A stretch of 64,000 bases of DNA from a virus. The stretch lies in the IMG/VR virus record IMGVR_UViG_3300029049_000007, positions 7,712 through 71,711 of that record, one strand, 5' to 3'. The notes beneath the pieces are model-generated. The model was not told the DNA's origin. It made no database searches and saw nothing but the letters and a program-made list of their open reading frames with translations. This document shows positions 873-61,116 of the stretch, piece by piece. Each line of letters starts with the position of its first letter. Position 1 is the stretch's first letter. The position numbers and the translations under genes are program-made.

Positions 873-1610
873 TTATTTATTGTATTTTTTCTTTAAGCTC
901 TCTAAATAATCGTTACCGCTAGTCTTTCTTGCTTCCACCTCCGCTTTCGTCAATCTCGTAGACAACTTATTGTTGTGAACCACTTTAGCTCCTTCAACAA
1001 CTGCATCTAAGTCCTTATTTTTATCTCTAACAGAGTCGAGAAGTTTGTCTGTTGCCGTTACATTTTTCAGCTCATCCATATCGTCATAAACTTCTTTTAA
1101 CTGTTTCTTAACTTTCATATTCTCTACAACTTCTTTACTCTCTCTTCTCAATTTACGGAGATTTTTTTCGCACATTTCCTGCGCTTTTTTTGCCGTATTT
1201 GCTGCGTCCTCATAAGCTTTCACTAATTCAGCATGTCTTTTTATATCGGCAATAACCTCTTCTCTTTCTTCCGCCTTTAACTGAGCTAAATCAATTTTTC
1301 CAGATTTTACAAGAGATTCACATTCTGTTTCTGTTTTATGTAATTTTGCTTTAAGATTCTCAGTTTCTTTTTTCGCATTACTCAGTTTTCCTGCGGCAAT
1401 GCGATACGCATTATCTGCTTTACTGTAGGCATCCTGCGCCTGATTGATTTTTTCACCGTAAATCGCCTCTGCGCCCTCCGGTGTTGTTGCCATATCTTTA
1501 ATAAATAATCTTGTAAATCCTGAAAATAATGTCCTCGCCTCTGGGAACAGGATAAAGATTAAAACAACAATGAAAACTGCAACAATAAAAATAAGTTTAC
1601 TTAATTCCAT
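873..1610 (-). CDS. PspA/IM30-like coiled-coil protein with N-terminal membrane anchor
   Basis: 245 aa. N-terminal TM helix, then a long K/E-rich amphipathic coiled coil resembling phage-shock protein A/IM30 family. Confidence 0.4.
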   Translation of the reverse strand: MELSKLIFIVAVFIVVLIFILFPEARTLFSGFTRLFIKDMATTPEGAEAIYGEKINQAQDAYSKADNAYRIAAGKLSNAKKETENLKAKLHKTETECESLVKSGKIDLAQLKAEEREEVIADIKRHAELVKAYEDAANTAKKAQEMCEKNLRKLRRESKEVVENMKVKKQLKEVYDDMDELKNVTATDKLLDSVRDKNKDLDAVVEGAKVVHNNKLSTRLTKAEVEARKTSGNDYLESLKKKYNK

Positions 1611-2140
1611 TACTCGTTCTCTCCTTTGATAAATTTAATAAGGTCAACAATTCTTTTATTTTCTGCTTCGATAGTTTCCTGCGAAGATTTTAATTCGAGC
1701 TGCTGCGCCGAAATTTCTTTTTCTAAGCGCTCGATTTCTTTTTTATGATTCTCGATTTCCTCTTCCTTTTCTCTAATGGACTTGTCTGCTTCTTCTGAAA
1801 TTTTAATCAGAATACTATTGAGTATTTCTGTTCTCTTCACTCCGTCAAGCTCTACGTCCGACTCGTTAAGCCCAAATACTTCAAGCGTTGCAAGTACGGA
1901 ATTTCGTTTTGTTTCAGTAACCATCTCTTTAGGAAGCGAATTGATGAGCTCCTCGATTTTAAAGATAGATTTTGTTTTATCCGCCAGTTCATTTTGGGAA
2001 TAAATGTCTTCGATTAAGGTGTCTGTACGAACTGCATCAAGTTCTGCTCCTTCAACGTCCACATCTTCGATAACCTCTCCAAAATCATAATCTTCCTGCT
2101 GTGGAACCTCTTCCACGAAAAATCCTTTTAAAAATCCCAT
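1610..2140 (-). CDS. acidic coiled-coil protein, unknown function
   Basis: 176 aa with an acidic N-terminus and a C-terminal coiled coil (EKEEEIENHKKEIERLEKEISAQQLELK). Stop/start overlaps the neighbouring gene. Confidence 0.4.
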   Translation of the reverse strand: MGFLKGFFVEEVPQQEDYDFGEVIEDVDVEGAELDAVRTDTLIEDIYSQNELADKTKSIFKIEELINSLPKEMVTETKRNSVLATLEVFGLNESDVELDGVKRTEILNSILIKISEEADKSIREKEEEIENHKKEIERLEKEISAQQLELKSSQETIEAENKRIVDLIKFIKGENE

Positions 2141-2153
2141 CCGTTTTTCTCCT

Positions 2154-2789
2154 TTAAAATTCTATAATTACATCACACATTTTTTTAGCTTCTTCCTTGC
2201 TATGTGTTACCATAATTATCGTGTTGTTACTTCTCTGGTGCTGCTCTACGATTAGATTCTGCATTTTATTTCTCGTGCAAGAATCAAGCGCTGATAACGG
2301 CTCATCCATAAGTACTACATCTGGATTTGCAAACAAAGTTCTTGCTAGAGCTAATCTCTGCCTCATTCCGCCGGAAAGCTGCTTGGGATATTTCCCCATG
2401 CTTTCACTTAGCCCGACCAGAGACAAAAGCTCTTTTGCTTCCGCTACATCCTTTTCTTCTAATTTCCCCCTTATTTTTTTTGCGATTAGAACATTGTCTA
2501 AGCACTTCAGCCAGTCAAATGAGGTATAATTCTGATGCATCATGTAAATATTGTTTTTACTCGCTTTAGTTACAATATTCCCATCCACGAGAACCTGACC
2601 ATCTATCGGTTTAATTAATCCTGCGACCGTTCTTAGTAAAGTAGTTTTACCGCAACCAGATTCTCCTAATACCCCATATATTTTTGCATCAAACTTATAA
2701 TTGAAATCTTTGAGCAATGGTTTGTCTCTACTATAACCAGTAGATAACTTATTTAATTCAATCATTGACATACCTCCATTTAAAGACAT
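2154..2789 (-). CDS. ABC transporter ATP-binding protein
   Basis: Walker A GESGCGKTT, ABC signature LSGGMRQR and Walker B VVLMDEP all present. Short 211-aa importer-type ATPase. Confidence 0.9.
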   Translation of the reverse strand: MSLNGGMSMIELNKLSTGYSRDKPLLKDFNYKFDAKIYGVLGESGCGKTTLLRTVAGLIKPIDGQVLVDGNIVTKASKNNIYMMHQNYTSFDWLKCLDNVLIAKKIRGKLEEKDVAEAKELLSLVGLSESMGKYPKQLSGGMRQRLALARTLFANPDVVLMDEPLSALDSCTRNKMQNLIVEQHQRSNNTIIMVTHSKEEAKKMCDVIIEF

Positions 2790-3480
2790 GCTTCACCAGC
2801 TTTTTAGCCGAAAAATCGAATAAGACACTAATTACCATAATTACTATAATCGCCATAAAAACTAAGTCTGTTCTTCCTCTTGAAGACGACTGTTGAATGA
2901 TGTATCCCAGTCCATATTTAGCGTTGATGGTTTCTGTCACTGCAATATAAGTAAATCCTATGCCGTACATCATTATGAAGCTATTTAAAACACTTGGAAG
3001 AGATGCTGGAATCTGTATTCTGAATATAGTTTGCAATTTATTCATTCCCATCGTTAATCCTGTTTCAATTAAGTCCTGACTTACTTCTTCCAAACATAGG
3101 ACAACTGATGGCATCATATATACGAATGTGGCAATAAACAAAAATACAATTTTCATTAATTCATCTATTCCGAACCACATGATTAATAAAGGATAAAATG
3201 CTGTAACTGGGATATACCTCATAACACTGATGACCGGATTTAAAATGTCTTTTGCGAGATTTGAGTTATATATAAGAAGTGCTATCGGAAATGAAATAGC
3301 ACCAGAAAGAATTGTTGCAACGGTAATTCTTAGAAAAGAATATTCTATTGCCTTAAATAATTGTCCGTTTTGAAGCATCAAAATTAAATTTCTCAAAACG
3401 CTTCTTGGAGATGGCACAAACAGCGGATTGGTATGTTGTGCCGCAATACCCCAAACTATAAGTATTGAAATGAATAGCAA
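2758..3480 (-). CDS. ABC importer permease (NitT/TauT-like, EAA-loop type)
   Basis: 240 aa, multi-TM. EAA-like loop ETGLTMGMNKLQTIFRIQIPASLP is typical of binding-protein-dependent permeases. Overlaps the ATPase gene. Confidence 0.75.
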   Translation of the reverse strand: MLFISILIVWGIAAQHTNPLFVPSPRSVLRNLILMLQNGQLFKAIEYSFLRITVATILSGAISFPIALLIYNSNLAKDILNPVISVMRYIPVTAFYPLLIMWFGIDELMKIVFLFIATFVYMMPSVVLCLEEVSQDLIETGLTMGMNKLQTIFRIQIPASLPSVLNSFIMMYGIGFTYIAVTETINAKYGLGYIIQQSSSRGRTDLVFMAIIVIMVISVLFDFSAKKLVKHVFKWRYVND

Positions 3481-15792: not shown

Positions 15793-16656
15793 TTAATTGC
15801 CTCCGTTTGTAACCACTGCTCCAGCTCCCTGAGTCGTAATCCAACCATGCTCAAGTCTTGCTTCTGCCAGTTTCATTTCGATTAATTCTTTTGTGATACT
15901 CTTTGCGATTGTCTGATTAGATGCGGCTTCAGCTTCAGCTTTTGTCTTCTTAATTTCGGCGTTATTTTTTGCCTCCAGTAACTTAGTCTCATTTTCTACT
16001 TTTACAGTTTCCTGCTCAACCTGTGCCTGCTGTTTCTTCTGAAGTGCCTGCACACGATTTTCAACTGCCTGTTTAAGCTTCTTATCTAAATGAACGTCAA
16101 TAATAGAGGCATCCAATACTTCGATTCCGTACTTGCTGCTAAAATCTTTGTTTAGATATTCTGTGATTTTGTGATTGATCTCGCTTCTGTTTCCGGAGTA
16201 AATATCCATCATGCTATAATTTGTAGTAACTTCGGAAATTTTTGATTTGATAACCGTTTTTACTCGATTATTTACGATGTCTTCTCCGCTCATGCCTTTA
16301 AATTTCTTATATGTATCAACAACATTTTCTTCAATAAATCTATAGCTCATCTGAAAACTTAATCCAATACTTGCATCATCAGATGTTGCAACTTTAAAGG
16401 AATCGTCTCCTTCAGAACCTTCTCTTTTATCTTTTGAAAGTACCAACTGCTCATTTCCAATAGTAAACTCTTTTACTTTATGCATCGGCGGAACAAAGTG
16501 CCATCCCTCACGATATATCTCATCCTTAACTCCACCATTTGCAGAGTAAATAACTCCGACTTTACCGGCATCGATAACTTTTATATGCGTTACCGCAAAA
16601 ATTCCTCCAAAAATCGCAAATACTACTACTAAAACAAGTGCAATAATCTTTTTCAT
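15793..16656 (-). CDS. SPFH/band-7 (prohibitin/HflK-like) membrane protein
   Basis: N-terminal TM helix, SPFH core and a C-terminal coiled coil (KKQQAQVEQETVKVENETKLLEAKNNAE). Confidence 0.75.
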   Translation of the reverse strand: MKKIIALVLVVVFAIFGGIFAVTHIKVIDAGKVGVIYSANGGVKDEIYREGWHFVPPMHKVKEFTIGNEQLVLSKDKREGSEGDDSFKVATSDDASIGLSFQMSYRFIEENVVDTYKKFKGMSGEDIVNNRVKTVIKSKISEVTTNYSMMDIYSGNRSEINHKITEYLNKDFSSKYGIEVLDASIIDVHLDKKLKQAVENRVQALQKKQQAQVEQETVKVENETKLLEAKNNAEIKKTKAEAEAASNQTIAKSITKELIEMKLAEARLEHGWITTQGAGAVVTNGGN

Positions 16657-16871: not shown

Positions 16872-17021
16872 TCATGTTTCATCCTCCGACTCGAAATCCT
16901 CCGTTGTATACAATCTCTGCTCGACGGAATAAGTTCCTTTGTCTTCTCCATCATCCGTAATGATAGTCATTGCAATCATCACTACGTCGTCTCTAAGCTG
17001 CAAATTAATTTTTCTTGCCAT
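16872..17021 (-). CDS. small acidic protein (not in ORF track)
   Basis: ATG directly after GGAGGG. 49 aa MARKINLQLRDDVVMIAM...EDFESEDET. Sits immediately downstream of the sigma-like gene. Confidence 0.3.
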   Translation of the reverse strand: MARKINLQLRDDVVMIAMTIITDDGEDKGTYSVEQRLYTTEDFESEDET

Positions 17022-17030
17022 AAGCCCTCC

Positions 17031-19427
17031 TTACGCTGCATCCTCAAGTTTCTCTTCTTTGTATGTCATATAGTTGTTTAAACTATTAAACATCATATTA
17101 TAATCTTCTGTATTTACCCCGGAAAATTTTACGTTTGTGCCGTAATTTTCAACGAGATTCTTAAACCATTCAATTGAAACGGCTTCATCCATTTCCAGTT
17201 CGTATGATTTAGCAACAATCTTCGTTAATGCCGGAATATTCTCTGCATCAAATATTCTTGAGTTATTATCCACTTCGGCGCTCCAATCATTTAGTGCAGA
17301 TGAGTACAGTTCCATATCGGAGATATCTTCTTCTGAGTATTTATTACCGGAAATAAATTCCTGAATGGCTTTATCCGAAGAATCATTCAATCCTTTTACG
17401 AACATTAAGCTTCCAACAGCGGCTCTTATTTTATTCATGTCTCCCGAAATCGCATTTTCCATAAGATTTGTTGAGCAGAAATCCTCCACATAATCGTCAA
17501 TTACGCTATTCGTCTCAAAAGATTCAACTCCTTCGGAAACTTCTATTCCTAAGAATTCATTCATCAATGATTCAATGTGTTCTAATTTCTTTCTAACTGC
17601 CGCTCTTCCTTTTGTTCCTGCGCTATAGTCAATGTCTTCTGTTGTGACTCCATCGACTTTTCTGTTATGTAACTCTTCTTTATACGCAACCAAAAATTCT
17701 ACAAACTTCTCATCTTCGGTTTCTGTGCGGCCAATCGCTGTCTTTGTAAACCGATCAAATAAAGTGAACCACACAAATGAATTCTTTGAATCAAATAAAT
17801 CACTCACTTCGTCAGTCACAACATCATAAAGCCTGTCAATAACTTCCTCTAAAGCATCAAACTGTTTTACCTTTGCATTTTCCTTCAGGTAAGTACAATT
17901 CACATCGTTGCTCTTGTTCCACTTATCTAAAAAGTTGATTGACATAATAGACTCAATAATTGTCCTGTCTAATTTGCCGTTATAAAATTCGGACAGACTA
18001 TAGTTTCCTTTTTCCTTGAAAAATGGCTTAACTGAAAGTGTTTTAACAATCTTGCTAAAATCTTCTCCGAGATATGTAATTCCTTTCTGGGCAACACTCA
18101 TAGGTTTTGACTGATTATATCTTCTGATATCATACTCAATCTGTTCCTTTGTGCAGTTAAGATTGAGCGTTATCTGAAGGTTATAATTCTTAAATCTTTC
18201 CTGTAATTCTTCTGGTAACTGAGAAAACTTCTTATTTCTAATATCGAATTCGCAATTAATCTTCTTCGGAATACCGTAACTATCGCAGACGATGTTTCCG
18301 TTTTCATCCTTCTCATTTGCCTGATATTCAATCATGCTCCGTTCTACATTTCTACTTATTTTAAATCCATCATTTAAGTATGAATAAATAGCTCCAACAA
18401 GTCTCTGTTTCCCATCTAAGAGCCATTTATAAGCAACGCCGTTAATGTATTGTTCTGCCAGCAGTAATGGAGGGATGGCATTTCCCTGTAATAAATCTGA
18501 TATTAAATTACTCTGCATAATTTTCGACCACTGACCTGACGCTCTCTGTAATGGATGATTGTCTAAAATACTCCGAGCATCTAACTGTAAACAGATTGAG
18601 ATTACAGATAATGCAATCATTTTTGTTTTTTCGCTTGTGCTTGTTGCTGGGGTTGCTGCTGCTTTGGGATTCTTCATAGATGGTTCTCCTTTAATAACTA
18701 CTTCTTTTTTTACTGTTTTATTTTTTGAACTGATTAAGCTTCTTGTCTTCTCAATAGATGTCATATCATTACAAAGCTCATAATACCTGCTTAATGTAAT
18801 TCCGAGTTTTTGCGCTATCTCTTCAAACGTGTATCCTTCAGACTTTAATTTCGCAATTTCCATCTGCATTGGACTTAATTTGCTGAAATATTCTGCTACT
18901 GCTGGACTACTCCATTCTCCGCAACTATCTAAGAATTCATCTTCTGCTGATGCTCCTCCTTCGATAAGTTCATATGGATTAGATTCCTCGTCATCCTCAG
19001 TGTAATCCAGAGATTCAATGAGTTTGTCTCCTCCGTTTTTGATGGCATTTCTCCGCGTCTGTTCCTGCTTAATCTTGTTCGACAAACAAGTATACAGATA
19101 TCCTTTAAAATCTCTTTTCCCGTCATAAGTATCCAGAATTTGTACGAATACTTCATTCGCAATTGAGTAGCAGTCATCTCGATCTGAGAAATTGGAAAAT
19201 CTATTCCGCTCAATAATCTTATCGACCATCTTTCTGATTTTCGCAGCATCGTTCCCATAATACTCTTCAATGATTTTTTCTTTATTCACTTTTACCTCTC
19301 TTTCGGACACTAACACTTTCAAGTGTCGCAGTACCCCGGCAAGGTTTTCCATATAACGGACGCATTTCACACCCGAAATATGGCTTAACCATGCGGTTTT
19401 AGGAAAGTCAACTAAGTAGTTTTTCAA
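17031..19427 (-). CDS. sigma-70 family (region 2 plus region 4) domain fused to DUF262/ParB-like (GmrSD N-terminal type) domain
   Basis: 798 aa with a TTG start. N-terminal about 230 aa carry sigma region 2.x (YLYTCLSNKIKQEQTRRNA) and a region 4 HTH (LSPMQMEIAKLKSEGYTFEEIAQKLGITLSRYYEL). A low-complexity linker follows. Then AIPPLLLAEQYINGVAYKWLLDGKQRLVGAI resembles the DUF262 IP...DGQQR core. Confidence 0.55.
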   Translation of the reverse strand: MKNYLVDFPKTAWLSHISGVKCVRYMENLAGVLRHLKVLVSEREVKVNKEKIIEEYYGNDAAKIRKMVDKIIERNRFSNFSDRDDCYSIANEVFVQILDTYDGKRDFKGYLYTCLSNKIKQEQTRRNAIKNGGDKLIESLDYTEDDEESNPYELIEGGASAEDEFLDSCGEWSSPAVAEYFSKLSPMQMEIAKLKSEGYTFEEIAQKLGITLSRYYELCNDMTSIEKTRSLISSKNKTVKKEVVIKGEPSMKNPKAAATPATSTSEKTKMIALSVISICLQLDARSILDNHPLQRASGQWSKIMQSNLISDLLQGNAIPPLLLAEQYINGVAYKWLLDGKQRLVGAIYSYLNDGFKISRNVERSMIEYQANEKDENGNIVCDSYGIPKKINCEFDIRNKKFSQLPEELQERFKNYNLQITLNLNCTKEQIEYDIRRYNQSKPMSVAQKGITYLGEDFSKIVKTLSVKPFFKEKGNYSLSEFYNGKLDRTIIESIMSINFLDKWNKSNDVNCTYLKENAKVKQFDALEEVIDRLYDVVTDEVSDLFDSKNSFVWFTLFDRFTKTAIGRTETEDEKFVEFLVAYKEELHNRKVDGVTTEDIDYSAGTKGRAAVRKKLEHIESLMNEFLGIEVSEGVESFETNSVIDDYVEDFCSTNLMENAISGDMNKIRAAVGSLMFVKGLNDSSDKAIQEFISGNKYSEEDISDMELYSSALNDWSAEVDNNSRIFDAENIPALTKIVAKSYELEMDEAVSIEWFKNLVENYGTNVKFSGVNTEDYNMMFNSLNNYMTYKEEKLEDAA

Positions 19428-19534: not shown

Positions 19535-19563
19535 TTGACCTAAAAAGAATTGTGTAGTAAGAT
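19535..19563 (+). promoter_or_regulatory. sigma-A-like promoter (TTGACC, 17 nt spacer, TAAGAT) driving a rightward small transcript antisense to the gene array
   Basis: Read directly: -35 TTGACC at 19535-19540 and -10 TAAGAT at 19558-19563. Confidence 0.35.
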
Positions 19564-19569
19564 AAAGAA

Positions 19570-19680
19570 ACGTAGGGGTATGCTCCAACATATCCTTACA
19601 ATCTTTGTTCTTTTTTGGACAAAGCATTTGCGTTTCCGCCCCGAGGTGCTCCAACACCATTTAAGGGGCGGTTTTTTATT
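19570..19680 (+). ncRNA. candidate small RNA of about 110 nt ending in an intrinsic terminator
   Basis: Runs from the promoter above to a stem CCGCCCC/GGGGCGG (19636-19671) with a nested GGTG...CACC hairpin and a T6 run. Internal repeat GCTCCAACA occurs twice. Only a poor 37-codon ORF with no usable RBS. Confidence 0.3.
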
Positions 19681-19770
19681 TTCCTTGTCATAATATACCA
19701 TGTATTATGTTAAAGTGTCAAGTATTTTTTCGAACCTCTGTTCGTTTTTTCGCTTCCATCTTTTTCCAGC

Positions 19771-22460: not shown

Positions 22461-23153
22461 TTACGCAACATTTTCTCCTTTAACTCTTCGTATTTTAAGC
22501 CGTTCATTAATGGTTTTATTCTTTGTACTGCAATAACATTTCCTGCATAAAAGACAGGGTTCTGAACCGCAATTAATCTTCACGTTATTCGCCTCAATGT
22601 ATTCATCTGAATATACTGTAAATACTTTATCTACAAAGCTCCATTTCGAGCCATCTGCAGGCTGATTTATCTTCATGCTGCTCAATATGATTTGCAAATT
22701 CCGCGGTTTCTTTTCTCCGTTAGAAATGACTTTTTCAATGATGAAAGGATTTTTTGTCCATAAGGCAAAATGAGTTCCTTTGTTTTTGCGGCAAATATTA
22801 AAGTAATTCATGAGCTGCGTTTCATTAATCAAATCGCCAAATGCTTCAAACCTGAAATATGAATAATTTAATATTGGTAGCTCTTCTAGTGAAAGTATTC
22901 GAGATGTAAGAATCTCTGTATTCCGCTCACAATTTCTTTGCATTCCCGGAAAAATTCTTAGGCTAGTGTTTGCGTAACAATATGAGCATATATTCTTTTC
23001 GTCCTTGCTGTACTTCTTACAATATTCATTGCAAAGACAAGATGTGGACAATGATGCCATACCGCTCATTTTACCTCTGTGCTTCGTTACAATATGAATT
23101 CCTGTTTTCTCTTTGAATTTGTCTGGCAATAAAATAATTTTTCTCTTACTCAA
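22461..23153 (-). CDS. Cys-rich protein (CxCxxxC...CxxC), possible metal/Fe-S partner of the adjacent radical SAM enzyme
   Basis: CLCNEYCKKYSKDEKNICSYCYA plus a C-terminal CGSEPCLLCRKCYC. Confidence 0.4.
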   Translation of the reverse strand: MSKRKIILLPDKFKEKTGIHIVTKHRGKMSGMASLSTSCLCNEYCKKYSKDEKNICSYCYANTSLRIFPGMQRNCERNTEILTSRILSLEELPILNYSYFRFEAFGDLINETQLMNYFNICRKNKGTHFALWTKNPFIIEKVISNGEKKPRNLQIILSSMKINQPADGSKWSFVDKVFTVYSDEYIEANNVKINCGSEPCLLCRKCYCSTKNKTINERLKIRRVKGENVA

Positions 23154-23202
23154 TTTTCCTCCAAATAAAAAGAGCGACTTAGTTGTCGCTCAACATCTTT
23201 AC

Positions 23203-23454
23203 TTATTTCTTTTCAAAGCATTCTTGAAGAATCATATGCTCTGGATAATCATTCCATGCGCTTATCAAAATGCTTTTATTTTCTGCCGATGTCATTTCGT
23301 ACCAATGACAAGAATTCTCATCCGAAAAATCATCTTTATCCGTAATTATATACACGTCTCCTTTCTTAATATAAAAATTAGGATTAGACATATTAAGACA
23401 TTGTGAATTTACCGGAATTATGCACTCTATTTTATCTCCTATGCTGTATATCAT
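23203..23454 (-). CDS. hypothetical protein
   Basis: 83-aa ORF between the Cys-rich and radical SAM genes. Confidence 0.35.
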   Translation of the reverse strand: MIYSIGDKIECIIPVNSQCLNMSNPNFYIKKGDVYIITDKDDFSDENSCHWYEMTSAENKSILISAWNDYPEHMILQECFEKK

Positions 23455-23467
23455 TTTTGTTCTCCAT

Positions 23468-24421
23468 TTATCTTTTAATTATTTTCATTCCTTTGTTCCA
23501 GCTTCCAGAAACAACTCCGTCTGGATGAATAATAAATTCTCTACATACAGAGTCATCTTCGTGTTTTTCAACTTCACTGAGCATTTTCATGTTTGAATAA
23601 CTAAATGTAATACATGTGTTCTCACACCTCCATATCTCGTACACATAATAATCTTGCACCGTCTGTTCGACAAACAAAAAATTATTAAAAGCGTATTCGA
23701 GAATCTGATTATATAACTCTTCTTTGTCGTCATATACAATCCCTGTTCGAGAATCCAGCTTCATTAATTTTCTAAAAGAAATATCGTCGGCAAACGAATA
23801 GGCTTTAATATATGCCATAACATCATCTATACTATTTACGTCGCATAGCACGCACTGCAATCGCATTTTCGTATATTTAAGGTTTTCTTTAATCGTTTTA
23901 AGCTCATTTAGGGTAGGCATATCTGTCCCAAATATCTCATTATTCCTCTGATCTGAAATTGCGTGGCGGCTAATATCAATAAAATCAAATAGGCCGTCTA
24001 TTTTATCCAAATGCTTGTATAAATATTTGGCATTAGTGTTCATTGTAAGGAACTTAATATCATGTTTTCTCAGCACTTCACATAATGCATCAAATTTATT
24101 GAAAAGCAATGGTTCTCCTCCGGTTACTGAGACTGAATATAATATTCCTGCCTTTTCCATTTCTGTTAGCATTAAATCCACTCGTTCTACATATTTGTAT
24201 GCGTTTTCTTCGCGTTCTGAATTCTGTTCCACACAGAAAAAACATTGAGCATTACATACATCTGTCAATTTCAAATGCAGATGCCAGAGCCACTCGTTCT
24301 TTTCTACTAAAATTTTGTGTCCAAATAATTCTACCTCCATCTTGTCCTCATATGTAATCGGAAGCTTTTCTACATCGCAGCTATGAATATAGTTTCTTAT
24401 ATCTGTATTCTGAGTAAACAT
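23468..24421 (-). CDS. radical SAM enzyme
   Basis: CNAQCFFC fits CX3CX2C, and VTGGEPLL is the glycine-rich SAM motif. 317 aa, no SPASM Cys cluster. Confidence 0.75.
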   Translation of the reverse strand: MFTQNTDIRNYIHSCDVEKLPITYEDKMEVELFGHKILVEKNEWLWHLHLKLTDVCNAQCFFCVEQNSEREENAYKYVERVDLMLTEMEKAGILYSVSVTGGEPLLFNKFDALCEVLRKHDIKFLTMNTNAKYLYKHLDKIDGLFDFIDISRHAISDQRNNEIFGTDMPTLNELKTIKENLKYTKMRLQCVLCDVNSIDDVMAYIKAYSFADDISFRKLMKLDSRTGIVYDDKEELYNQILEYAFNNFLFVEQTVQDYYVYEIWRCENTCITFSYSNMKMLSEVEKHEDDSVCREFIIHPDGVVSGSWNKGMKIIKR

Positions 24422-50029: not shown

Positions 50030-50049
50030 TTATCCACAAGTTATCAACA
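50030..50049 (+). promoter_or_regulatory. tandem DnaA boxes: perfect TTATCCACA (50030-50038) and one-mismatch TTATCAACA (50041-50049)
   Basis: Read directly. Embedded in an AT-rich non-coding region. Confidence 0.55.
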
Positions 50050-50105
50050 ACATTTCAACCGTATATTTTCTGAATTTTCTTAAGTTTTTCAATTTTGCTA
50101 AAAAG

Positions 50106-50114
50106 TTATCCACA
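50106..50114 (+). promoter_or_regulatory. third DnaA box, perfect TTATCCACA
   Basis: Read directly, 68 nt downstream of the tandem pair in the same orientation. Confidence 0.55.
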
Positions 50115-50680
50115 ATTTGCTATTTTTCAGAAAAATGAATTCTCCTCAGCGGATTCCTGCATACAGTAAGTTTTCTATTGCAGTAACCTTCTTCTCTCCT
50201 TTTTCAAGAATCATCCTGTTAGGATTTGTCTGTAATAATAAACTATCTTTTGTGAATCGAGATTCTATATCCAGAAAATGTTTGGATGAATTCGCAGAAA
50301 AAAAGATAATTACGTTTGTATTCTATAGACTGCATATGAGTGTAGTCTTTTTTATTTTGTTATTGCGCGGATAATATGCACAGTAATTGTCTAATATCTC
50401 ACCGTAACCGTCAGATCGCAGAAAAATTCTGTCCGTTTTCAGAAGTATATAGTGCGACGCTCGTGGCTCGGCATTTTCTAGTCGAAAACACGAAAATCCA
50501 CTTGGCGAAACAATGTCTTATCTTATTAAGTCTTATATTAATAGGTCACATTCTGGTGACAAAAACATGACATCTCGACTGTGCTTATCTGGGGGTCATG
50601 TCACAAAATTGTCGTTCCAGACTGAATCACCCATGTTTGCTGGGCAAAGTACGTCTGGCACGAAAAGAAAGGAGAATTCT

Positions 50681-52323: not shown

Positions 52324-55038
52324 ATGCTTTATGATGTTAACTTAGGTATTAGAGATTACTTTACTTACACAGATGCAATGCTCAACAATAGCTTATTCAG
52401 TTATTTTCTTCAAAAAAATGGCATGAAAGTGTATAAAGGCGAATCCACTAGAGACGTTATTTGTTTAGATTTTGATTTCGGAAGTAGGTCGTATGAAGAC
52501 GAGAAAAAACGACTGAATAAAATGATTAAGAATGCAGCAAACGATACCGAAAGAAAAAAGCTTGAAAAAGTTGTTGCAAAGATTGAAGGAAACAAAGAAA
52601 AATATGCTCCTAAAAAACGCGGAGAAATTCGAGAACAGTTCTATGAAGAAGGAGTTTCAATCACATATACTACCAAGAAAAAAGACGGAAGTATTAAAAG
52701 TTCTCAGACAATCCGCTACCGCATGCTCTATCGTACAAGCGCAAAAGCAAAATCTGGGCAGGTAATTTTCATTAATGAAAAACTTTACGATAAGGCTTAC
52801 GACTGGCTCACTATGGGGCTTGGAGATAAAATGCCAAAAAATGACGCGAAAATTGTTGAAATGTCCGCTTATGCCCCACTCACAACATCTACAATCGTAG
52901 ATACAATTCATATCCCCGTTGAAGATATTTTAATATTAAAAGATCAGGATTCATTCTTCAAAACAATCGCAAACGTGGTTTACGCCGAAGAATACGAAAA
53001 GAAATCCGGCAAAAAGACTGTTAAATCCAAAAAATGTCTCGTGAAGCAGGAAGAACGTGAGGTAAAAAATACCTTATGGGACGGAATGGGTATTATTGAA
53101 TCTTCTTACCTCCCACAATCTATTAATGGCATGGCCCTATTAAGACAGCACATGTTCAAAATGTGTGGGTTTAGAGGGCATATTCAGAAGTTTTTCGTGG
53201 ATTGGTGCTATGAAAACGGTCATGATTACTATACATATCAAGTTCCAGACATGTTTGGCAACATGCATTATGTGAAGGACATCAAGATTATTACGACTGA
53301 TAATGCAATAAAGTGGCGCAAGTTCATTGATATTATGGGTGGAACCCCAGTCAAGGCGTATGATTACTGGATGGGTAGAATCAAGGCTGATGGTGAAATC
53401 TGGGGAATTGTAAAAACTGACCACAAAAGTAAGCTTGGGGATTTACAGCAGATGAGCTATCAGATGATTAACACTCTTCCTTGCAACCGGGATGATGTAA
53501 GGAACATCGCTGATAATAGTATTTCATATGTTGAAAAGATCAAAACCGATGGAGCCGAATTTGAAAAGTTCTTGCGAAAAAACGCAAATGCGGTAAATCA
53601 CTACGAGATGCTTGCTGATTTGTACTCTCATAATCCTGATTTTGCAGATAGCACATGGTTTAGGCACGAGAAAAAGAAAATTATTTCTGAATATGTATTT
53701 AGGCTTAGGACAGGGAAAATAACTGTCAACGGAGACAATCTTACTTTGTGCGGAAACCCTTACGCTCTCCTGCTTCATTCTGTTGGTGAGGATTATAGAG
53801 AAGACCCTAGTTTTTCTGATGAGGATGGAGCAATACAGTGTTATACTACGAGATTTAGAGACGACGAGTATTTATGTGCGTTTCGTAACCCGCATAATGC
53901 CCCGAATAATATATGTCACCTACATAATGTTTACAGTGATGTTATGGAGAGATACTTCCCATTTAGCGAAAATATTATTGCAATAAATAATATCTGTACG
54001 GATGTACAGGATCGAGCGAATGGATGCGACTATGATTCTGATTTTTTCTTTGTAACAAATGAAGAAACTATGGTTAAATACGCCAAAATCGCGTACAAGA
54101 ATTATCCTACTATTGTAAATGACATTCACGAAAGTGGGATTACATACGCAAATACCAAGAAGGCATACGCCGAAATGGATAATAAATTTGCAAAATCGCA
54201 GCTTGGAATTGGATTATCCAGTAATTTAGCCCAGCTCGCAATGACATATTACTGGACGGAACTTAATAAAGAGAACCCAAATAAAGAATTACTTAAAGAA
54301 CTTTATGATAACTTCGTTATTCTCAGTGTGTTAGCACAGTTAGTAATCGATAGCTGCAAGAGGACGTTCGAAATCGACGCTATGGAGGAGATTGACAGAA
54401 TTCAGCGAATGGACTGTATGTGCAAAACCGCAGAAATAGAACTCGAAGATGGCTCTACCACAACTGTAAGACGAGATTTTCCTCATTTTATGAAATATAC
54501 TAGGAATGTTCCTACCACCAAAAATGGGAAAGAACTGCCCCAAGGAACTATTTCGAATAACAGAAAAAAACTCAACGACAGAATCAATGAAGACCTTGTT
54601 TGCCCAATGAACTGGCTGCAAGAATGGCTCGACAAAATACAGAACTTGGTTTCAAGAGGAACCATTCCGACAAATGACTTCTTTATTAAAATGAAGGGAA
54701 CGGCGAACAACCGCCAAATGTCTAAAATACGAGGTATTGTCGAGGAATATGACCGCATGATTAAATCGTATTACGCAAAATACGGCGGAACGGAGGAATA
54801 TATTGAAAAACTAATAGAAGAATCTGATTTTGTAGTAGAACAGCTAAGAAAAGTCAAAATCGGTAATGCAGTAACTATAAATCGTCTTATCGAGGTAGCC
54901 CTTGGCCTTAATGCTCCGGCAAAAAACAAGAAGCTGGATTATAAGCAAGGAACTAAGTACACTCGAAAGATGCTGAATCTACTCTACAAAATGGATAGAG
55001 AAAAATTTCTCGCAAATTTTGTTCGAAAAACTACTTAG
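52324..55038 (+). CDS. 904-aa protein of unknown function; candidate non-canonical single-subunit (YonO-like, double-psi beta-barrel) RNA polymerase - speculative
   Basis: No Walker motifs. ...CAFRNPHNAPNNICHLHNV...IAINNICTDVQDRANGCDYDSDFFFV shows an acidic D-x-D-x-D loop (DYDSD), preceded by an R-N-P-H segment that loosely parallels the msRNAP beta-prime NADFDGD / NRAPTLH arrangement. Size is similar to YonO. Not verifiable without profile or structure comparison. Confidence 0.3.
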   Translation: MLYDVNLGIRDYFTYTDAMLNNSLFSYFLQKNGMKVYKGESTRDVICLDFDFGSRSYEDEKKRLNKMIKNAANDTERKKLEKVVAKIEGNKEKYAPKKRGEIREQFYEEGVSITYTTKKKDGSIKSSQTIRYRMLYRTSAKAKSGQVIFINEKLYDKAYDWLTMGLGDKMPKNDAKIVEMSAYAPLTTSTIVDTIHIPVEDILILKDQDSFFKTIANVVYAEEYEKKSGKKTVKSKKCLVKQEEREVKNTLWDGMGIIESSYLPQSINGMALLRQHMFKMCGFRGHIQKFFVDWCYENGHDYYTYQVPDMFGNMHYVKDIKIITTDNAIKWRKFIDIMGGTPVKAYDYWMGRIKADGEIWGIVKTDHKSKLGDLQQMSYQMINTLPCNRDDVRNIADNSISYVEKIKTDGAEFEKFLRKNANAVNHYEMLADLYSHNPDFADSTWFRHEKKKIISEYVFRLRTGKITVNGDNLTLCGNPYALLLHSVGEDYREDPSFSDEDGAIQCYTTRFRDDEYLCAFRNPHNAPNNICHLHNVYSDVMERYFPFSENIIAINNICTDVQDRANGCDYDSDFFFVTNEETMVKYAKIAYKNYPTIVNDIHESGITYANTKKAYAEMDNKFAKSQLGIGLSSNLAQLAMTYYWTELNKENPNKELLKELYDNFVILSVLAQLVIDSCKRTFEIDAMEEIDRIQRMDCMCKTAEIELEDGSTTTVRRDFPHFMKYTRNVPTTKNGKELPQGTISNNRKKLNDRINEDLVCPMNWLQEWLDKIQNLVSRGTIPTNDFFIKMKGTANNRQMSKIRGIVEEYDRMIKSYYAKYGGTEEYIEKLIEESDFVVEQLRKVKIGNAVTINRLIEVALGLNAPAKNKKLDYKQGTKYTRKMLNLLYKMDREKFLANFVRKTT

Positions 55039-55796: not shown

Positions 55797-56278
55797 CCAT
55801 TATGCCGCCGTTTGGCGGTTAACCTTCGGGTTATAAAACGAGAACTGAAACTGATTTGTAATGGTCGGTCGGTTCAGTCGCAGATGAACTATGAGGCTGC
55901 GGAGCAATCATGCTAAAATGATATTCACTGCTTGCAGTGTCTTACAAAAAACAAGATTTCAAATAATGGGTTTTATTATTCAATAAAAATTGGTTTAGAA
56001 AACAGCGAGTAAAAGATGACTTGTCATTTGCTTCGTTATTCGTCCCTCCTGATATTTCCCCATCTTGTTCTATTTATATCTCTATATCTCTTTCTTTCTA
56101 AAATCGCTTCGTCCAATAGTTATCCTGAGCAGGATAAACATTTCTTAAAGTATAAAGGATGTACTTATATTATTTTAATTATACATGGAAAATATTTTGA
56201 CGTACATAAAAAATATTGATTGAGATTACGATGATTTTTCAGTTTTCATTTTATAGCCCGAAAAGCATTTATCTATTT

Positions 56279-56361
56279 CCCGTCGTAAAGCACTATGGAC
56301 ATGCGCCAGTCTGTAAAACTGGTGACTTCGGTCTGGCTTGGTTCGATTCCAAGAGGCGGGA
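56279..56361 (+). tRNA. tRNA-Tyr (anticodon GTA), class II with long variable arm - manual fold
   Basis: Anticodon arm CCAGT-CTGTAAA-ACTGG, variable arm GAC-TTCG-GTC, T-arm CTTGG-TTCGATT-CCAAG, acceptor CCCGTCG/AGGCGGG with U8-A9. The D-arm is not cleanly foldable by eye. No encoded CCA. Confidence 0.45.
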
Positions 56362-56364
56362 TTT

Positions 56365-56447
56365 TGCAGGGTAGCAAAGTTCGGTATTGCGCGGTCATAC
56401 AGCAAATCATTAGACCGAGACGAAGGTTCAAATCCTTCCTCTGCAAT
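56365..56447 (+). tRNA. tRNA-like gene with canonical acceptor, D and T arms but an enlarged 16-nt anticodon loop (possible anticodon CAU)
   Basis: Acceptor TGCAGGG/CTCTGCA, U8-A9, D-arm GCAA-AGTTCGGTA-TTGC, T-arm GAAGG-TTCAAAT-CCTTC. Anticodon stem CGGTC/GACCG encloses ATACAGCAAATCATTA. Confidence 0.35.
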
Positions 56448-56652: not shown

Positions 56653-57285
56653 TTGGATTATACTCTATTTTTTGATACCAATGCTCTTCTGAATCTTCAA
56701 GAACAAGCGTTTAAAGAGAAGTTTGTTATTGCTCAAAAAACTCTTGAAGAAATTGAAAGCATTAAATCTTCTTTTAATAAAGATGGAGAAGTAAAATATA
56801 AAGCTCGTAAGGTTGCTCATCTGCTAAACGACCGAGAGTCAGATTATGAAGTAATTCCTTACAGTCCAGAAATTCAAAACATTATTCAATTACATTATTT
56901 AGAAGAAACACCTGACAATATTATCCTCGCAAGTGCGTATTGCTATGATAATGCAGTAAATAAAGTCATTGTTGTTTCCGATGATTTAAACTGTAAATTC
57001 ATCAGCAAAAACATCTTTGATTTAACAACAAAAGGTATTGACGATATCAATATCGCAAAGAAAATTGAAAATTATAAAGGATATAAAGACGTTATTCTCT
57101 CTGATGAGGAAATGTCTTATTTTTACACTCATCTTTCGGAGAATATTTTTGAATGTATCTATGGAGAGTATTTAATTATCCGAAAATCTGATGGAGAAAT
57201 CGTGGACTACCGCAAGTGGAATGGGGCAGAATTATGCCGCGCTATCATATACACGCGTAAACAGCAATTTTCTTGGGGAAAATAA
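56653..57285 (+). CDS. PIN-domain protein (N-terminal half of a YlaK/PhoH2-type PIN-PhoH pair)
   Basis: TTG start. Acidic residues at PIN-like positions (LFFDTNALL, EEIESIK, VVSDDLN). Ends at a TAA immediately after the heptamer G_GGA_AAA. Confidence 0.55.
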   Translation: MDYTLFFDTNALLNLQEQAFKEKFVIAQKTLEEIESIKSSFNKDGEVKYKARKVAHLLNDRESDYEVIPYSPEIQNIIQLHYLEETPDNIILASAYCYDNAVNKVIVVSDDLNCKFISKNIFDLTTKGIDDINIAKKIENYKGYKDVILSDEEMSYFYTHLSENIFECIYGEYLIIRKSDGEIVDYRKWNGAELCRAIIYTRKQQFSWGK

Positions 57286-57920: not shown

Positions 57921-58577
57921 ATGGATACAATTTTAATTCCACCATCAGTATTTGACAGCGAAAGTGAATCTTTTTTCCCAGACCCAAAGGATTATACCTA
58001 TTGGGAAGCAAGAGAGTCTCGCATCTTCTATATTGATTGGGAATTAGATGAAATTTATAACGCCGTAGAATTATCAAAAATCATTATTCAGATGAATGTA
58101 AAAGAAAAAAACATCCCAGATAAAAACCTAAAGCCTATTTATCTTTTTATTCACTCTTATGGAGGAGATTTAGACCAGTGTCATACCCTTATAGATATTA
58201 TCTGTAGCAGTAGAATTCCTATTGTTACTGTCGCAATGGGTGTTGCTATGTCTGCAGGTTTTATGATTTTTCTGGCAGGACATAAGAGATATGCGTTCAA
58301 ACATTCAAACTTAATGGTACATAAAGGACAAGCGTCTATCTCCGGAACACCAGACCAGATTGAGCAGGCACAGAAGAATTATAAACGTCAGTTGAACGAT
58401 ATGAAGGAATTTATCCTTGCAAGAACAGAGATTCAAGAAAAAGTTTTTAATAGGAATGCAAATAAAGACTGGTTTCTTACAATTGAAGAACTTGAAAAAT
58501 ATAAAGTTGTAGACAAAATTATTGATAATTTTACAGATATCTTTGCAGATACTTGTACACTGGAGGAGATTTTTTAA
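57921..58577 (+). CDS. ClpP-family (S14) serine protease
   Basis: GVAMSAGFMIF aligns with ClpP GQAASMGAFLL around the catalytic Ser. Downstream His (HKGQ). Confidence 0.65.
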   Translation: MDTILIPPSVFDSESESFFPDPKDYTYWEARESRIFYIDWELDEIYNAVELSKIIIQMNVKEKNIPDKNLKPIYLFIHSYGGDLDQCHTLIDIICSSRIPIVTVAMGVAMSAGFMIFLAGHKRYAFKHSNLMVHKGQASISGTPDQIEQAQKNYKRQLNDMKEFILARTEIQEKVFNRNANKDWFLTIEELEKYKVVDKIIDNFTDIFADTCTLEEIF

Positions 58578-60868: not shown

Positions 60869-60892
60869 TATAGAGCGGAAGCCGCTCTTTAT
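60869..60892 (+). terminator. intrinsic terminator
   Basis: GAGCGG-AAG-CCGCTC followed by TTTATT. Confidence 0.5.
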
Positions 60893-60964
60893 TGGCTGTT
60901 GGCGAAACGGAAACGCAACGGAATTTGACTCCGTGAATTCAGGGTTCGAATCCCTGGCGGCCAG
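60893..60964 (+). tRNA. tRNA-Gln (anticodon UUG)
   Basis: Complete manual cloverleaf: acceptor TGGCTGT/GCGGCCA, D-arm GCG-AAACGGAAA-CGC, anticodon arm ACGGA-ATTTGAC-TCCGT, variable GAATT, T-arm CAGGG-TTCGAAT-CCCTG, discriminator G. No encoded CCA. Confidence 0.7.
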
Positions 60965-61116
60965 TATTTAATTGATAGTGATTTATAGAAATACAGAATG
61001 TTTGCATTCAGGCAAAGGCACATGAGCGCCCTCTTGCCTTATAGACCACTATCACTAGCCCTTGGCTATCTTCGTGATGGTTGAGGGCATTTTTTGGCTT
61101 TTTTACGAGAAAGGAT

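Follow-up and report, generated by a model that had tools for sequence, protein, structure and literature searches.

Sigma factors are usually small proteins under the control of separate anti-sigma partners, and ParB/Srx-type NTP switches have recently been recognised as long-range promoter regulators on plasmids and integrative elements. The window analysed here, a 64-kb stretch of viral DNA, carries a gene that appears to unite both kinds of protein in one chain, and the question it raises is what such a protein does for a phage. The initial annotation had read it as a sigma-70 region 2/4 domain fused to a DUF262 domain, which might couple promoter recognition to DNA nicking or sensing, or act as a phage late-gene regulator of a new type. 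We consider it rather probable that the gene encodes a sigma factor, made upon SOS induction or early in infection, that redirects the host RNA polymerase (RNAP) and is targeted or gated by an NTP-binding DNA module attached to it.

Results

An unbroken gene with a corrected start

The open reading frame at 17,031 to 19,427 on the minus strand is unbroken and amounts to 798 aa if counted from TTG. This TTG, initially taken as the start codon, proved to be an artefact of ORF extension that adds 46 unsupported codons. Alignments with close homologues of 752 aa (79-86% identity) begin at ORF residue 47, which is the GTG at 19289, distant homologues start at most a few residues from this codon, and it is preceded by a GAGAGGT ribosome-binding site (RBS). 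The claim that both domains lie in a single ORF holds, as no frameshift separates them and each of the 120 best database homologues has both parts in a single chain. The tiny acidic ORF reported to follow the gene is also present (Table 1). Most of the changes that set it apart from its counterpart in an 86%-identical phage are synonymous and, judged by its sequence, it looks like a real gene, one that is confined to close relatives.

Table 1. Features of the sigma-DUF262 locus and the RNAP gene, in window coordinates.
Feature	Position	Strand	Details
Sigma-DUF262 gene, corrected	17031..19289	-	GTG start 19289; 752 aa; stop codon 17031-17033
Sigma region 2 domain	19035..19289	-	Residues 1-85 of the 752-aa protein
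Acidic disordered linker, like region 3.2 of primary sigmas	18906..19034	-	Residues 86-128
Sigma region 4 HTH domain	18726..18905	-	Residues 129-188
Lys/Thr/Ala/Ser-rich flexible linker	18639..18725	-	Residues 189-217; split point in two-gene relatives
DUF262 / ParB-Srx-type nucleotide-binding domain (predicted)	18090..18638	-	Residues 218-400
All-helical ParBDB-like domain (= NsnA-C)	17544..18089	-	Residues 401-582; NsnA profile match, phrog_2598
Variable helical C-terminal extension	17034..17543	-	Residues 583-752
Tiny acidic ORF	16872..17021	-	49 aa; own GGAGGG RBS; directly 3' of the sigma-DUF262 gene
Host sigmaA-type promoter of the sigma-DUF262 gene	19692..19721	-	TTGACA, 18 nt, TG-extended TATATT
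LexA (Cheo/SOS) box, putative, by sequence	19731..19744	-	CGAACAGAGGTTCG; 10 nt upstream of the -35 hexamer
Candidate small RNA gene, antisense to the leader	19535..19677	+	Promoter, three hairpins, terminator
YonO/QDE-1/crAss gp66-class two-barrel single-subunit RNAP	52324..55038	+	904 aa; invariant N-G-x-D-x-D-S-D

A sigma factor joined to a nuclease-free DUF262 module

In sigma factors, region 2 recognises the -10 element and binds core RNAP, and region 4 recognises the -35 element and binds the flap. Both domains, region 2 and the region 4 HTH, are present in the N-terminal part of the protein. It exceeds the curated cut-offs of the sigma models TIGR02937 (NCBIfam, sigma70-ECF; 50.4 bits versus 42.9, ORF residues 66-214) and Sigma70_ECF (Pfam PF07638; 29.9 versus 21.1), which agrees with the initial reading of sigma regions 2 and 4 and is at odds with a generic HTH. 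The family profile between the two domains ('...vSLdtPvGdedeltLGDl...') aligns with SigA region 3.2 ('...iSLETPIGkEEDSrLGDFI...', E 0.002), a likeness to primary sigma factors that distinguishes this linker from ECF-type sigmas. On these profile matches the N-terminus is a genuine ECF-type sigma-70, composed of sigma2, a region 3.2-like linker and sigma4. The acidic linker (residues 85-125) and the Lys/Thr/Ala/Ser-rich linker that follows sigma4 (residues 190-217), the latter already noted as Thr/Ala/Ser-rich, both have pLDDT below 50 and are thus predicted to be disordered.

The initial annotation implied that all of the remaining 500 aa are DUF262, and this needs to be refined: a DUF262 domain of about 180 aa is followed by a ParBDB-like domain of about 180 aa and a variable extension of about 170 aa. 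The DUF262 assignment itself, with a DGxQR core after the linker, is borne out by three motifs (I, H245-P-L-Q-R..Q-W254; II, D292-G-K-Q-R296; III, R390-Y-N392) and by profile matches. The PADLOC NsnA profile is matched at E 3.6e-11 and essentially over its full length (residues 204-580 on profile positions 31-383 of 385), phrog_2598 covers ORF residues 269-561, and the Pfam model GmrSD_N/PF03235 matches ORF residues 293-422 at E 1.6e-7, its 32.1 bits lying just below the cut-off of 33.2. The protein thus has the predicted ParB/Srx-fold nucleotide-binding domain and the two-domain core of ParB-DUF262 plus ParBDB; ParBDB is the DNA-binding middle domain common to NsnA, DndB, GmrSD and SspE (PMC12065111). 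BrxU shares it as well; the alignment to BrxU spans 187 residues only.

Among 50 homologues of 36-86% identity there is little or no variation in QR(x4)W, in the DGKQR core, whose conservation had been singled out as a check, and in (I)xRYN. The mean frequency of the top residue is 0.71 in DUF262, 0.65 in ParBDB, 0.63 in sigma2 and 0.52 in sigma4, and the DUF262 and ParBDB module is therefore under stronger conservation than the sigma part. The C-terminal extension is poorly conserved (72% occupancy), is missing from family members of about 565 aa, and gave no family or fold match. The DUF1524-like nuclease residues that had been expected downstream did not materialise: no Pfam, NCBIfam or PADLOC model of the DUF1524 (His-Me/HNH-like) nuclease matched even at E ≤ 1, and the C-terminus is all-helical and variable. 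Since the protein has no DUF1524/HNH nuclease, the suggestion of DNA nicking is unsupported and a GmrSD-like nuclease function is ruled out.

A large family in fused and split forms

In a representative library clustered at 50% identity, 502 members of the family were counted at E ≤ 1e-30. The best 150 of these comprise about 85 full-length fusions and about 60 stand-alone forms that start at the linker. Representatives occur in dozens of Lachnospiraceae, cultured and uncultured, the cultured lysogens being Eisenbergiella tayi DSM 26961, Hungatella hathewayi WAL-18680, Clostridium symbiosum ATCC 14940, Eubacterium plexicaudatum ASF492 and Lacrimispora sp. HJ-01. Going by these homologues, the fusion defines a large family without a name so far, spread among phages and prophages of gut Lachnospiraceae. 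The open-access papers searched contain no description of it.

The fusion that had seemed non-standard in a single genome is conserved elsewhere, being found at 135 of 161 loci. At another 22 loci the sigma and DUF262 parts are separate neighbouring genes, the break falling exactly at the linker, and at the split junctions inspected the stop codon, the RBS and the new start codon all fall within the linker. A DUF262 gene without an adjoining sigma gene was seen at three loci only, two of them at contig ends. The two halves, mostly fused, sometimes split yet adjacent and rarely apart, are thus functionally linked.

Promoter, LexA box and a leader antisense RNA

The sigmaA-type promoter agrees with the consensus at 11 of 12 positions and implies a leader of about 400 nt. 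The putative LexA box upstream of it is the sole GAAC-N4-GTTC site in the whole 64-kb window. The upstream regions of family members show a 48-fold enrichment of LexA boxes (0.71 versus 0.015 per kb); the boxes are found at 49 of 77 bacterial loci and 11 of 79 viral loci, and two boxes on either side of TTGACA-N17-TATACT are a frequent arrangement. The remaining 68 of the 79 viral loci are placed behind a CI-type switch instead, and SOS control is therefore not universal in the family.

The leader region also contains a candidate small RNA gene on the opposite strand, with a promoter (TTGACC-17-TAAGAT, 19535-19563) and a terminator (19636-19671) followed by T6; the predicted RNA would be about 110 nt long (19570-19677). 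The plus strand of this region folds at -41.8 kcal/mol (z -5.15) versus -33.3 (z -2.83) for the gene strand. Relatives share a conserved core and a stem that appears to covary, covariation having been judged by eye because RNAalifold, applied to a MAFFT alignment, recovered the invariant inner hairpin alone and the outer stems were out of register. Rfam searches (the window at the gathering threshold, loci L081 and L007 at E ≤ 10) returned tRNA only and no family for the leader element.

Gene neighbourhood and a YonO-class polymerase

The window also encodes an RNAP with a double-psi beta-barrel catalytic core and a DxDGD-type metal motif, 33 kb from the sigma-DUF262 gene; in prophages the two genes are adjacent and divergent. 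At 51 of 80 Lachnospiraceae genome loci the sigma-DUF262 gene is divergent to an RNAP-led operon, which includes a virion structural protein (phrog_2729) and genes whose sequences look like those of a holin and a lysin, the majority of the operon's genes having no function by Pfam or PHROG. Where the downstream genes of such divergent loci were read, at four of them, sigma-DUF262 is the last prophage gene and host genes follow. The view that the gene is a phage transcription regulator fits this context, with a sigmaA promoter and LexA box in front of the gene and the divergent RNAP, virion and lysis-like operon in prophages.

Both genes are also present in phage MT835469.1. A 29-kb contig that was read nearly in full and the added stretches of related contigs of about 40 kb, all of which carry the split pair, yielded no RNAP homologue. 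The 80 best viral contigs for the RNAP and the 80 best for sigma-DUF262 overlap in three contigs, which belong to the window's own phage group. Obligate co-occurrence is ruled out by these two results, and the link between the two genes is strong in prophages and not obligatory. Because the split-pair phages of about 40 kb show no RNAP homologue, we argue that the partner of the sigma factor is the host RNAP.

Downstream of sigma-DUF262 in the window are the 49-aa ORF, a 55-aa ORF and an SPFH protein. Neither an NsnB ATPase nor an NsnC effector was found adjoining the gene in the window, and the downstream regions of 160 loci have no conserved cluster of ATPase or effector genes. In many viral loci a MazF-like toxin and a further small DUF262 protein are encoded nearby. 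The conserved upstream neighbour in phages, a 226-aa gene, received no function from Pfam or PHROG, and for the usual downstream neighbour of 195 aa DUF5839 was the sole match in these collections. No DNA-modification genes were found in the 64-kb window, so that a role as sensor of modified DNA finds no support.

A cognate promoter was sought in 42 upstream regions of the window, where k-mer enrichment and a two-block search (4-mer, 14-19 nt, 4-mer) returned RBS-like and A-rich signals alone, no better than shuffles, and no cognate motif. The promoter leads TTTAGCAA and GGTAGG dissolved on closer look. Upstream of prophage RNAP operons there is a strand-specific motif, RGAGAAWTA, which was rejected as the cognate motif, as it is not enriched in the intergenic regions of the window and is assignable to neither polymerase.

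Discussion

Several known systems resemble parts of this protein. Compared with ECF (group 4) sigma-70 factors, T4 gp55 and, by their descriptions, PBSX Xpf and the UV-inducible clostridial UviA/TcdR, the protein studied here is the only one with some 560 aa of DUF262, ParBDB and extension. With GmrSD, BrxU and SspE it shares a DUF262 N-domain with QRxxxW, DGxQR and FxxxN, followed by a helical middle domain; however, it lacks the DUF1524 His-Me nuclease, is fused to a sigma factor, is encoded by phages and not in defence islands, and is LexA-controlled, as judged from the box. The two-domain core fits the profile of NsnA from Menshen, and NsnA also tolerates N-terminal DNA-binding fusions (PMC12065111). 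The sigma-related NsnA-N domains, however, are region 1.1-like only, in contrast to the complete sigma2 and sigma4 found here, and membership in Menshen is ruled out by the lack of NsnB or NsnC partners. The window and its prophage relatives encode a YonO-class two-barrel RNAP, as SPbeta does, and in the prophages it heads the virion and lysis-like operon; the SPbeta literature consulted describes no linked sigma-DUF262 gene.

A ParB/Srx-fold module coupled to the control of mobile-element transcription is likewise found in BisD (ICEclc), KorB (RK2), VirB (Shigella) and DndB. KorB and VirB are ParB-type NTP switches at promoters of mobile elements. BisD consists of a ParB-like part and an activator domain, and separating them abolishes activation (PMC12409273); by analogy, BisD may be the protein that works most like ours. 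DndB is a regulator that has reportedly been studied together with its DGQHR motif (PMC4507180). The protein in the window differs from the ParB-family switches in that it has the DGKQR of DUF262 (DGxQR type) instead of the CTP-binding GxxR of the ParB N-domain, and in that its effector is a whole sigma factor.

These comparisons suggest how the protein might act. Host RNAP would transcribe the gene from its strong sigmaA promoter. In the window phage and most prophage relatives this promoter would be guarded by LexA, and the protein would therefore be made upon DNA damage or early in infection. The ECF-like sigma module may then bind host core RNAP through sigma2, the region 3.2-like linker and sigma4, and redirect it to phage promoters, the likely target in prophages being the divergent operon, with the YonO-class RNAP first and the virion and lysis genes after it. 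The nuclease-free DUF262 and ParBDB module would bind nucleotide, possibly hydrolysing it, and DNA; by analogy with the NTP switches BisD, VirB and KorB, which control promoters on mobile elements, it might anchor or target the sigma factor on phage DNA, or gate its activity. The protein is probably the phage's master switch for later genes.

A bolder possibility, to which we give a low probability, is a sigma factor that is gated by NTP and loaded on DNA: its DUF262/ParBDB part would be loaded onto phage DNA, or recognise it, and bring the attached sigma to promoters. In a single polypeptide this would resemble the mobile enhancer that T4 builds from its sliding clamp and gp55, or the BisD-CTP clamp. 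The cue might be a particular site, the end of a DNA molecule, or the state of its replication or modification. In a more radical form, the protein would be the long-sought initiation factor for YonO-class RNAPs. The DUF262 module could instead be an intramolecular regulator only, a nucleotide-sensing anti-sigma or activator extension without DNA targeting. ECF41/42-type sigma factors, with their C-terminal extensions, offer a comparison, and an extension carried on a flexible linker, conserved NTP-binding motifs and split forms compatible with a separate regulator protein would all suit such a role. However, a stand-alone anti-sigma is not normally more conserved than its sigma, the ParBDB-like domain is conserved like the NTP domain, and the SspE homologue of ParBDB is reported to be essential for DNA binding (PMC12065111), which makes this quite improbable.

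It is also very unlikely, in our estimate, that sigma-DUF262 serves the phage YonO-class RNAP, and not the host RNAP, as the factor it otherwise lacks for promoter specificity or initiation. The proximity of the two divergent genes at 51 bacterial loci and their presence together in the window and in MT835469.1 speak for it, and Forrest et al. 2017 leave undecided whether additional factors are needed by YonO (PMC5467207). Against it are the split pairs in contigs with no RNAP homologue and the small overlap of the best-80 lists. Moreover, sigma2 and sigma4 have their docking surfaces on the beta-prime clamp helices and the beta flap. Finally, the protein may not be a transcription factor at all and could instead serve as a prophage DNA sensor in defence or counter-defence, like NsnA or DndB, its sigma-like fold being added for DNA binding, as happens in NsnA proteins of Type II Menshen systems. 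NsnA is indeed the best match in the defence library, NsnA proteins often bear an additional DNA-binding domain at the N-terminus, in some cases with a sigma-70 region 1.1-like fold (PMC12065111), and the second DUF262 protein and MazF-like toxin near many viral loci are what such a sensor might have beside it. We nevertheless regard this reading as highly doubtful, because the gene has neither an NsnB ATPase nor an NsnC effector nor a DUF1524 nuclease beside it in the window and the loci examined, the full sigma architecture scores above curated cut-offs, and LexA control together with a position facing the RNAP-led operon fits a regulator of prophage induction.

Under the preferred reading, as a sigma factor for host RNAP, a conserved covalent or operonic union of a sigma factor with a ParB-like module would newly couple promoter choice to nucleotide-dependent reading of DNA. 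The family looks like an SOS-triggered master switch of widespread gut Lachnospiraceae prophages that carry a YonO-type RNAP, and it may therefore be relevant to how prophages are induced in the human gut and to how YonO-class polymerases come into play. The cultured lysogens make the proposed switch directly testable.

Gene limits and domain architecture

The sigma-DUF262 gene is a single open reading frame without a break on the minus strand, running from 19427 to 17031 and comprising 798 codons when counted from the TTG that the initial annotation took as the start. However, close homologues of 752 aa (79-86% identical) in a 5.8-billion-protein collection align starting at ORF residue 47, and more distant homologues start only a few residues away. 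Because this residue is a GTG at 19289 with GAGAGGT just upstream, alignment places the gene start there, and the 46 additional codons from the TTG are part of the leader. Residue numbers below refer to the 752-aa form except where marked "ORF residue".

That the N-terminus is a sigma factor, as had been proposed, is borne out by NCBIfam TIGR02937 (sigma70-ECF; 50.4 bits, cut-off 42.9) and Pfam Sigma70_ECF (29.9 bits, cut-off 21.1). PDB sequences searched with the family profile gave matches almost only to sigma factors, with the acidic linker pairing with the region 3.2 segment of SigA. An AlphaFold2 model from 50 homologues has a mean pLDDT of 82.8, with disorder confined to residues 85-125 and 190-217.

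The proposed DUF262 identity also holds: the score for Pfam GmrSD_N (DUF262) is one bit below cut-off (E 1.6e-7), the PADLOC NsnA model matches over its full length at residues 204-580 (E 3.6e-11), and the DUF262 motifs QRxxxW, DGxQR and FxxxN (PMC12065111) are present as H-P-L-Q-R-x-S-x-Q-W, D-G-K-Q-R and I-x-R-Y-N. Among 50 sequences 36-86% identical to the query, the key residues of these motifs, with the DGQQR-type core singled out earlier, are invariant or nearly so. DUF262 nevertheless covers only part of the C-terminal 500 aa once assigned to it, since residues 401-582 are the counterpart of the helical ParBDB domain, the DNA-binding middle domain common to NsnA, DndB, GmrSD and SspE (PMC12065111), and residues 583-752 form a variable, poorly conserved helical extension that family members of ~565 aa lack. 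The DUF1524-like part that had been envisaged was not found: Pfam, NCBIfam and PADLOC profile searches of the protein detected no DUF1524/His-Me nuclease, and identity as a GmrSD-type enzyme was rejected on this account. As read from profile matches and alignments of both parts, the domain order is sigma2, 3.2-like linker, sigma4, flexible linker, DUF262, ParBDB and variable tail.

Fused and split forms

Both parts are present in 120 of the 120 best database matches, which together with the uninterrupted ORF confirms a one-gene fusion. The same fusion was sought with an HMM run exhaustively over 1.84 billion cluster representatives, which gave 502 proteins at E<=1e-30; the best 150 comprise about 85 full-length fusions and about 60 stand-alone DUF262 proteins that start exactly at the linker. 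We retrieved 80 viral and 80 bacterial loci (160 in all), added the window for counts, and called fused or split forms with one HMM for each half. The fused form occurs in 135 loci, a sigma gene lies immediately upstream of a DUF262 gene in 22, and just three DUF262 genes have no adjoining sigma, two of them at contig ends. Where split loci were inspected, a ribosome-binding site and a fresh start codon come after the sigma stop (TAG, TGA or TAA), at the linker position. This distribution reads as a classic Rosetta-stone pattern. DUF262 and ParBDB are the most conserved protein segments, so the module is not a decaying passenger; sequence comparison indicates that the fusion is real, old and under selection.

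Hosts and gene neighbourhoods

Related contigs were read as 10-kb flanks. Bacterial matches (80 loci, integrated in chromosomes) are nearly all from Lachnospiraceae, with hosts in Eisenbergiella, Hungatella, Lacrimispora, Roseburia and Blautia as well as Clostridium symbiosum and Eubacterium plexicaudatum. In 51 of the 80, sigma-DUF262 is divergent from an operon headed by a ~920-aa protein. Downstream of it, all four divergent loci read have host genes (acetate kinase, DNA polymerase I and HtpG among them), and there sigma-DUF262 is the last prophage gene. Because N-G-x-D-x-D-S-D is invariant within its family, we assign the operon-leading protein to the YonO-class two-barrel single-subunit RNA polymerases. 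This family is very large (more than 2000 database matches); almost none of the matches is named, one is a "hypothetical protein", and none has a precomputed Pfam domain. The polymerase gene is followed by unknown genes, a virion structural protein (phrog_2729) and, further on, a holin-like and a lysin-like gene recognized by inspection of sequence only.

The motif RGAGAAWTA occurs upstream of these operons in a strand-specific manner (1.01 versus 0.15 per kb background) and was found in 27 of the 51 bacterial loci with such an operon. The site lies between the polymerase-like and sigma-DUF262 genes, preceded by an A-rich stretch and often followed by ...GTA..CC. It is possibly a phage-specific promoter.

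Viral loci most often have, in this sequence, an opposite-strand XRE-type HTH gene, a MazF-like gene, small genes, a 226-aa gene, sigma-DUF262 and a 195-aa gene; given the HTH gene and this order, sigma-DUF262 there is in an early operon behind the lysogeny switch. In many related phages a PemK/MazF-like toxin adjoins the HTH gene in this region. Many also encode a second, stand-alone DUF262 protein (~178 aa; GmrSD_N, E 3.8e-13) about five genes upstream of sigma-DUF262 (for example, loci L015, L021-L023 and L031).

The window is A+T-rich (G+C about 35%) and is transcribed leftward to about 50 kb and rightward after that; near-identical DNA is carried by IMG/VR viral contigs of 112-130 kb. Its phage genes for replication and recombination code for a PolIII-alpha-like polymerase, primase, DnaB and SSB, together with a PD-(D/E)XK nuclease, Sak annealase, integrase and an HNH endonuclease. 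Cargo unusual for a phage comprises an ABC-transporter ATPase and permease, ClpP protease, a PIN-domain protein, a weak PspA/IM30-like match (25.5 bits versus cut-off 33.9) and a radical-SAM enzyme adjoining a Gp88-like protein. The cargo also includes an SPFH/band-7 protein downstream of sigma-DUF262, separated from it by two small ORFs of 49 and 55 aa. Relative to an 86%-identical phage, the 49-aa ORF has mainly synonymous changes, and it is probably a real gene limited to close relatives; an anti-sigma-like partner role is conceivable.

Features of the window
Feature	Position	Strand	Remarks
Sigma-DUF262 gene, corrected	17031-19289	-	752 aa
Acidic 49-aa ORF	16872-17021	-	directly 3' of sigma-DUF262 stop codon; RBS GGAGGG
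SigmaA promoter of sigma-DUF262 gene	19721-19692	-	near-consensus, TTGACA-18-TG-TATATT
GAAC-N4-GTTC box, CGAACAGAGGTTCG	19731-19744		ten bases upstream of -35 hexamer
Candidate ~110-nt small RNA	19535-19677	+	antisense to sigma-DUF262 leader; promoter TTGACC-17-TAAGAT; three hairpins
Likely replication origin	~50030-50120		two DnaA-box-like TTATCCACA sequences
RNA polymerase, YonO/QDE-1/crAss-gp66 class	52324-55038	+	904 aa; NGxDxDSD motif
tRNA-Tyr(GTA), adjoining tRNA-like gene, tRNA-Gln(TTG)	56278-56447 and 60892-60965	+
Cargo genes	873-3480, 15793-16656, 22461-24421	-
Cargo genes	56653-57285, 57921-58577	+

Promoter, LexA-type box and leader

The sigmaA promoter implies a leader of ~400 nt. 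In Bacillota, GAAC-N4-GTTC serves as the LexA/DinR (Cheo) box. The window's only such site could be due to chance, given an expectation of 0.55 sites per window. In the family as a whole, however, the density of such boxes is 0.71 per kb over the 700 nt preceding the genes versus 0.015 elsewhere (49 of 77 bacterial and 11 of 79 viral loci), and a TTGACA-N17-TATACT promoter is often bracketed by two boxes. Based on this enrichment and the box in the window, direct SOS control of sigma-DUF262 is predicted. SPbeta SOS boxes of the same form have been tabulated (PMC8270828). No promoter recognized by sigma-DUF262 itself was identified in the 64-kb window.

The candidate small RNA ends in a terminator (CCGCCCC...GGGGCGG then U6) and has an invariant loop core, GGTGTTGG(C/A)GCACC in gene-strand reading, found in 35 of 161 loci, each time near sigma-DUF262. 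Its outer stems exist in at least six different covarying versions. Predicted folding is much stronger for the plus strand (z -5.15) than for the gene strand (z -2.83), and two independent G.U-versus-C.A comparisons favor the antisense strand as the RNA. Orientation is reversed in loci L032-L047, and no Rfam family matched the candidate.

In relatives L005, L007, L008 and L051, a tRNA-Gln(TTG) sits in the leader between the RNA element and the sigma-DUF262 start. The window's tRNA-like gene has a four-base anticodon (acag) according to ARAGORN. The TTATCCACA sites lie at the strand switch, where GC skew is at its minimum, within ~800 bp of non-coding DNA; transcription runs outward from this region in both directions.

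Discussion

An ECF-like sigma factor is thus joined, by a tether or within an operon, to a DUF262/ParBDB module that lacks a nuclease; it lies behind a host-type promoter with a LexA-type box, and in prophages it faces an operon headed by the phage's own RNA polymerase. On balance we favor an SOS-induced sigma factor that would, after DNA damage, redirect host core RNA polymerase onto phage promoters, plausibly including that of the polymerase-led operon. The phage polymerase would next take over, as YonO drives the late genes of SPbeta (PMC5467207; PMC8270828). The module may bind NTP and DNA and either target or gate the sigma part.

A module acting purely as an intramolecular regulator without a DNA role is unlikely, given the high conservation of ParBDB. 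Gene adjacency would also fit an initiation factor of the phage RNA polymerase, and the YonO paper left open the question of additional factors (PMC5467207). However, no polymerase homologue was found in a 29-kb contig with separate sigma and DUF262 genes, read almost fully, or in stretches of related ~40-kb contigs, and the viral contigs with the closest polymerases are mostly absent from the sigma-DUF262 contigs among the matches listed on both sides; we regard this role as improbable. Equally doubtful is a defense-type DNA sensor, since effector partners are absent from the loci examined and the sigma architecture is complete.

For the action proposed for the module, BisD of ICEclc offers the closest functional parallel: this ParB-like protein binds CTP, bears an extra activator domain, accumulates on element DNA and turns on 11 promoters, an activation abolished when the domains are separated (PMC12409273). 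KorB and VirB are further ParB-type precedents for promoter control, and DndB is a regulator studied together with its DGQHR motif (PMC4507180).

The suggestion that this architecture is non-standard agrees with the literature: no description of a sigma-DUF262 fusion was found in open-access full text, and the sigma-related folds given for NsnA N-termini in the Menshen survey are all region 1.1-like (PMC12065111), whereas the sigma architecture here is complete. Among homologues, one JGI record is named "RNA polymerase sigma factor (sigma-70 family)", another starts "DNA-directed RNA polymer…", several sources give "hypothetical protein", and most records are nameless. The sigma factor itself is of a known kind; the novelty is a conserved ParB-type module, new on a phage sigma factor.
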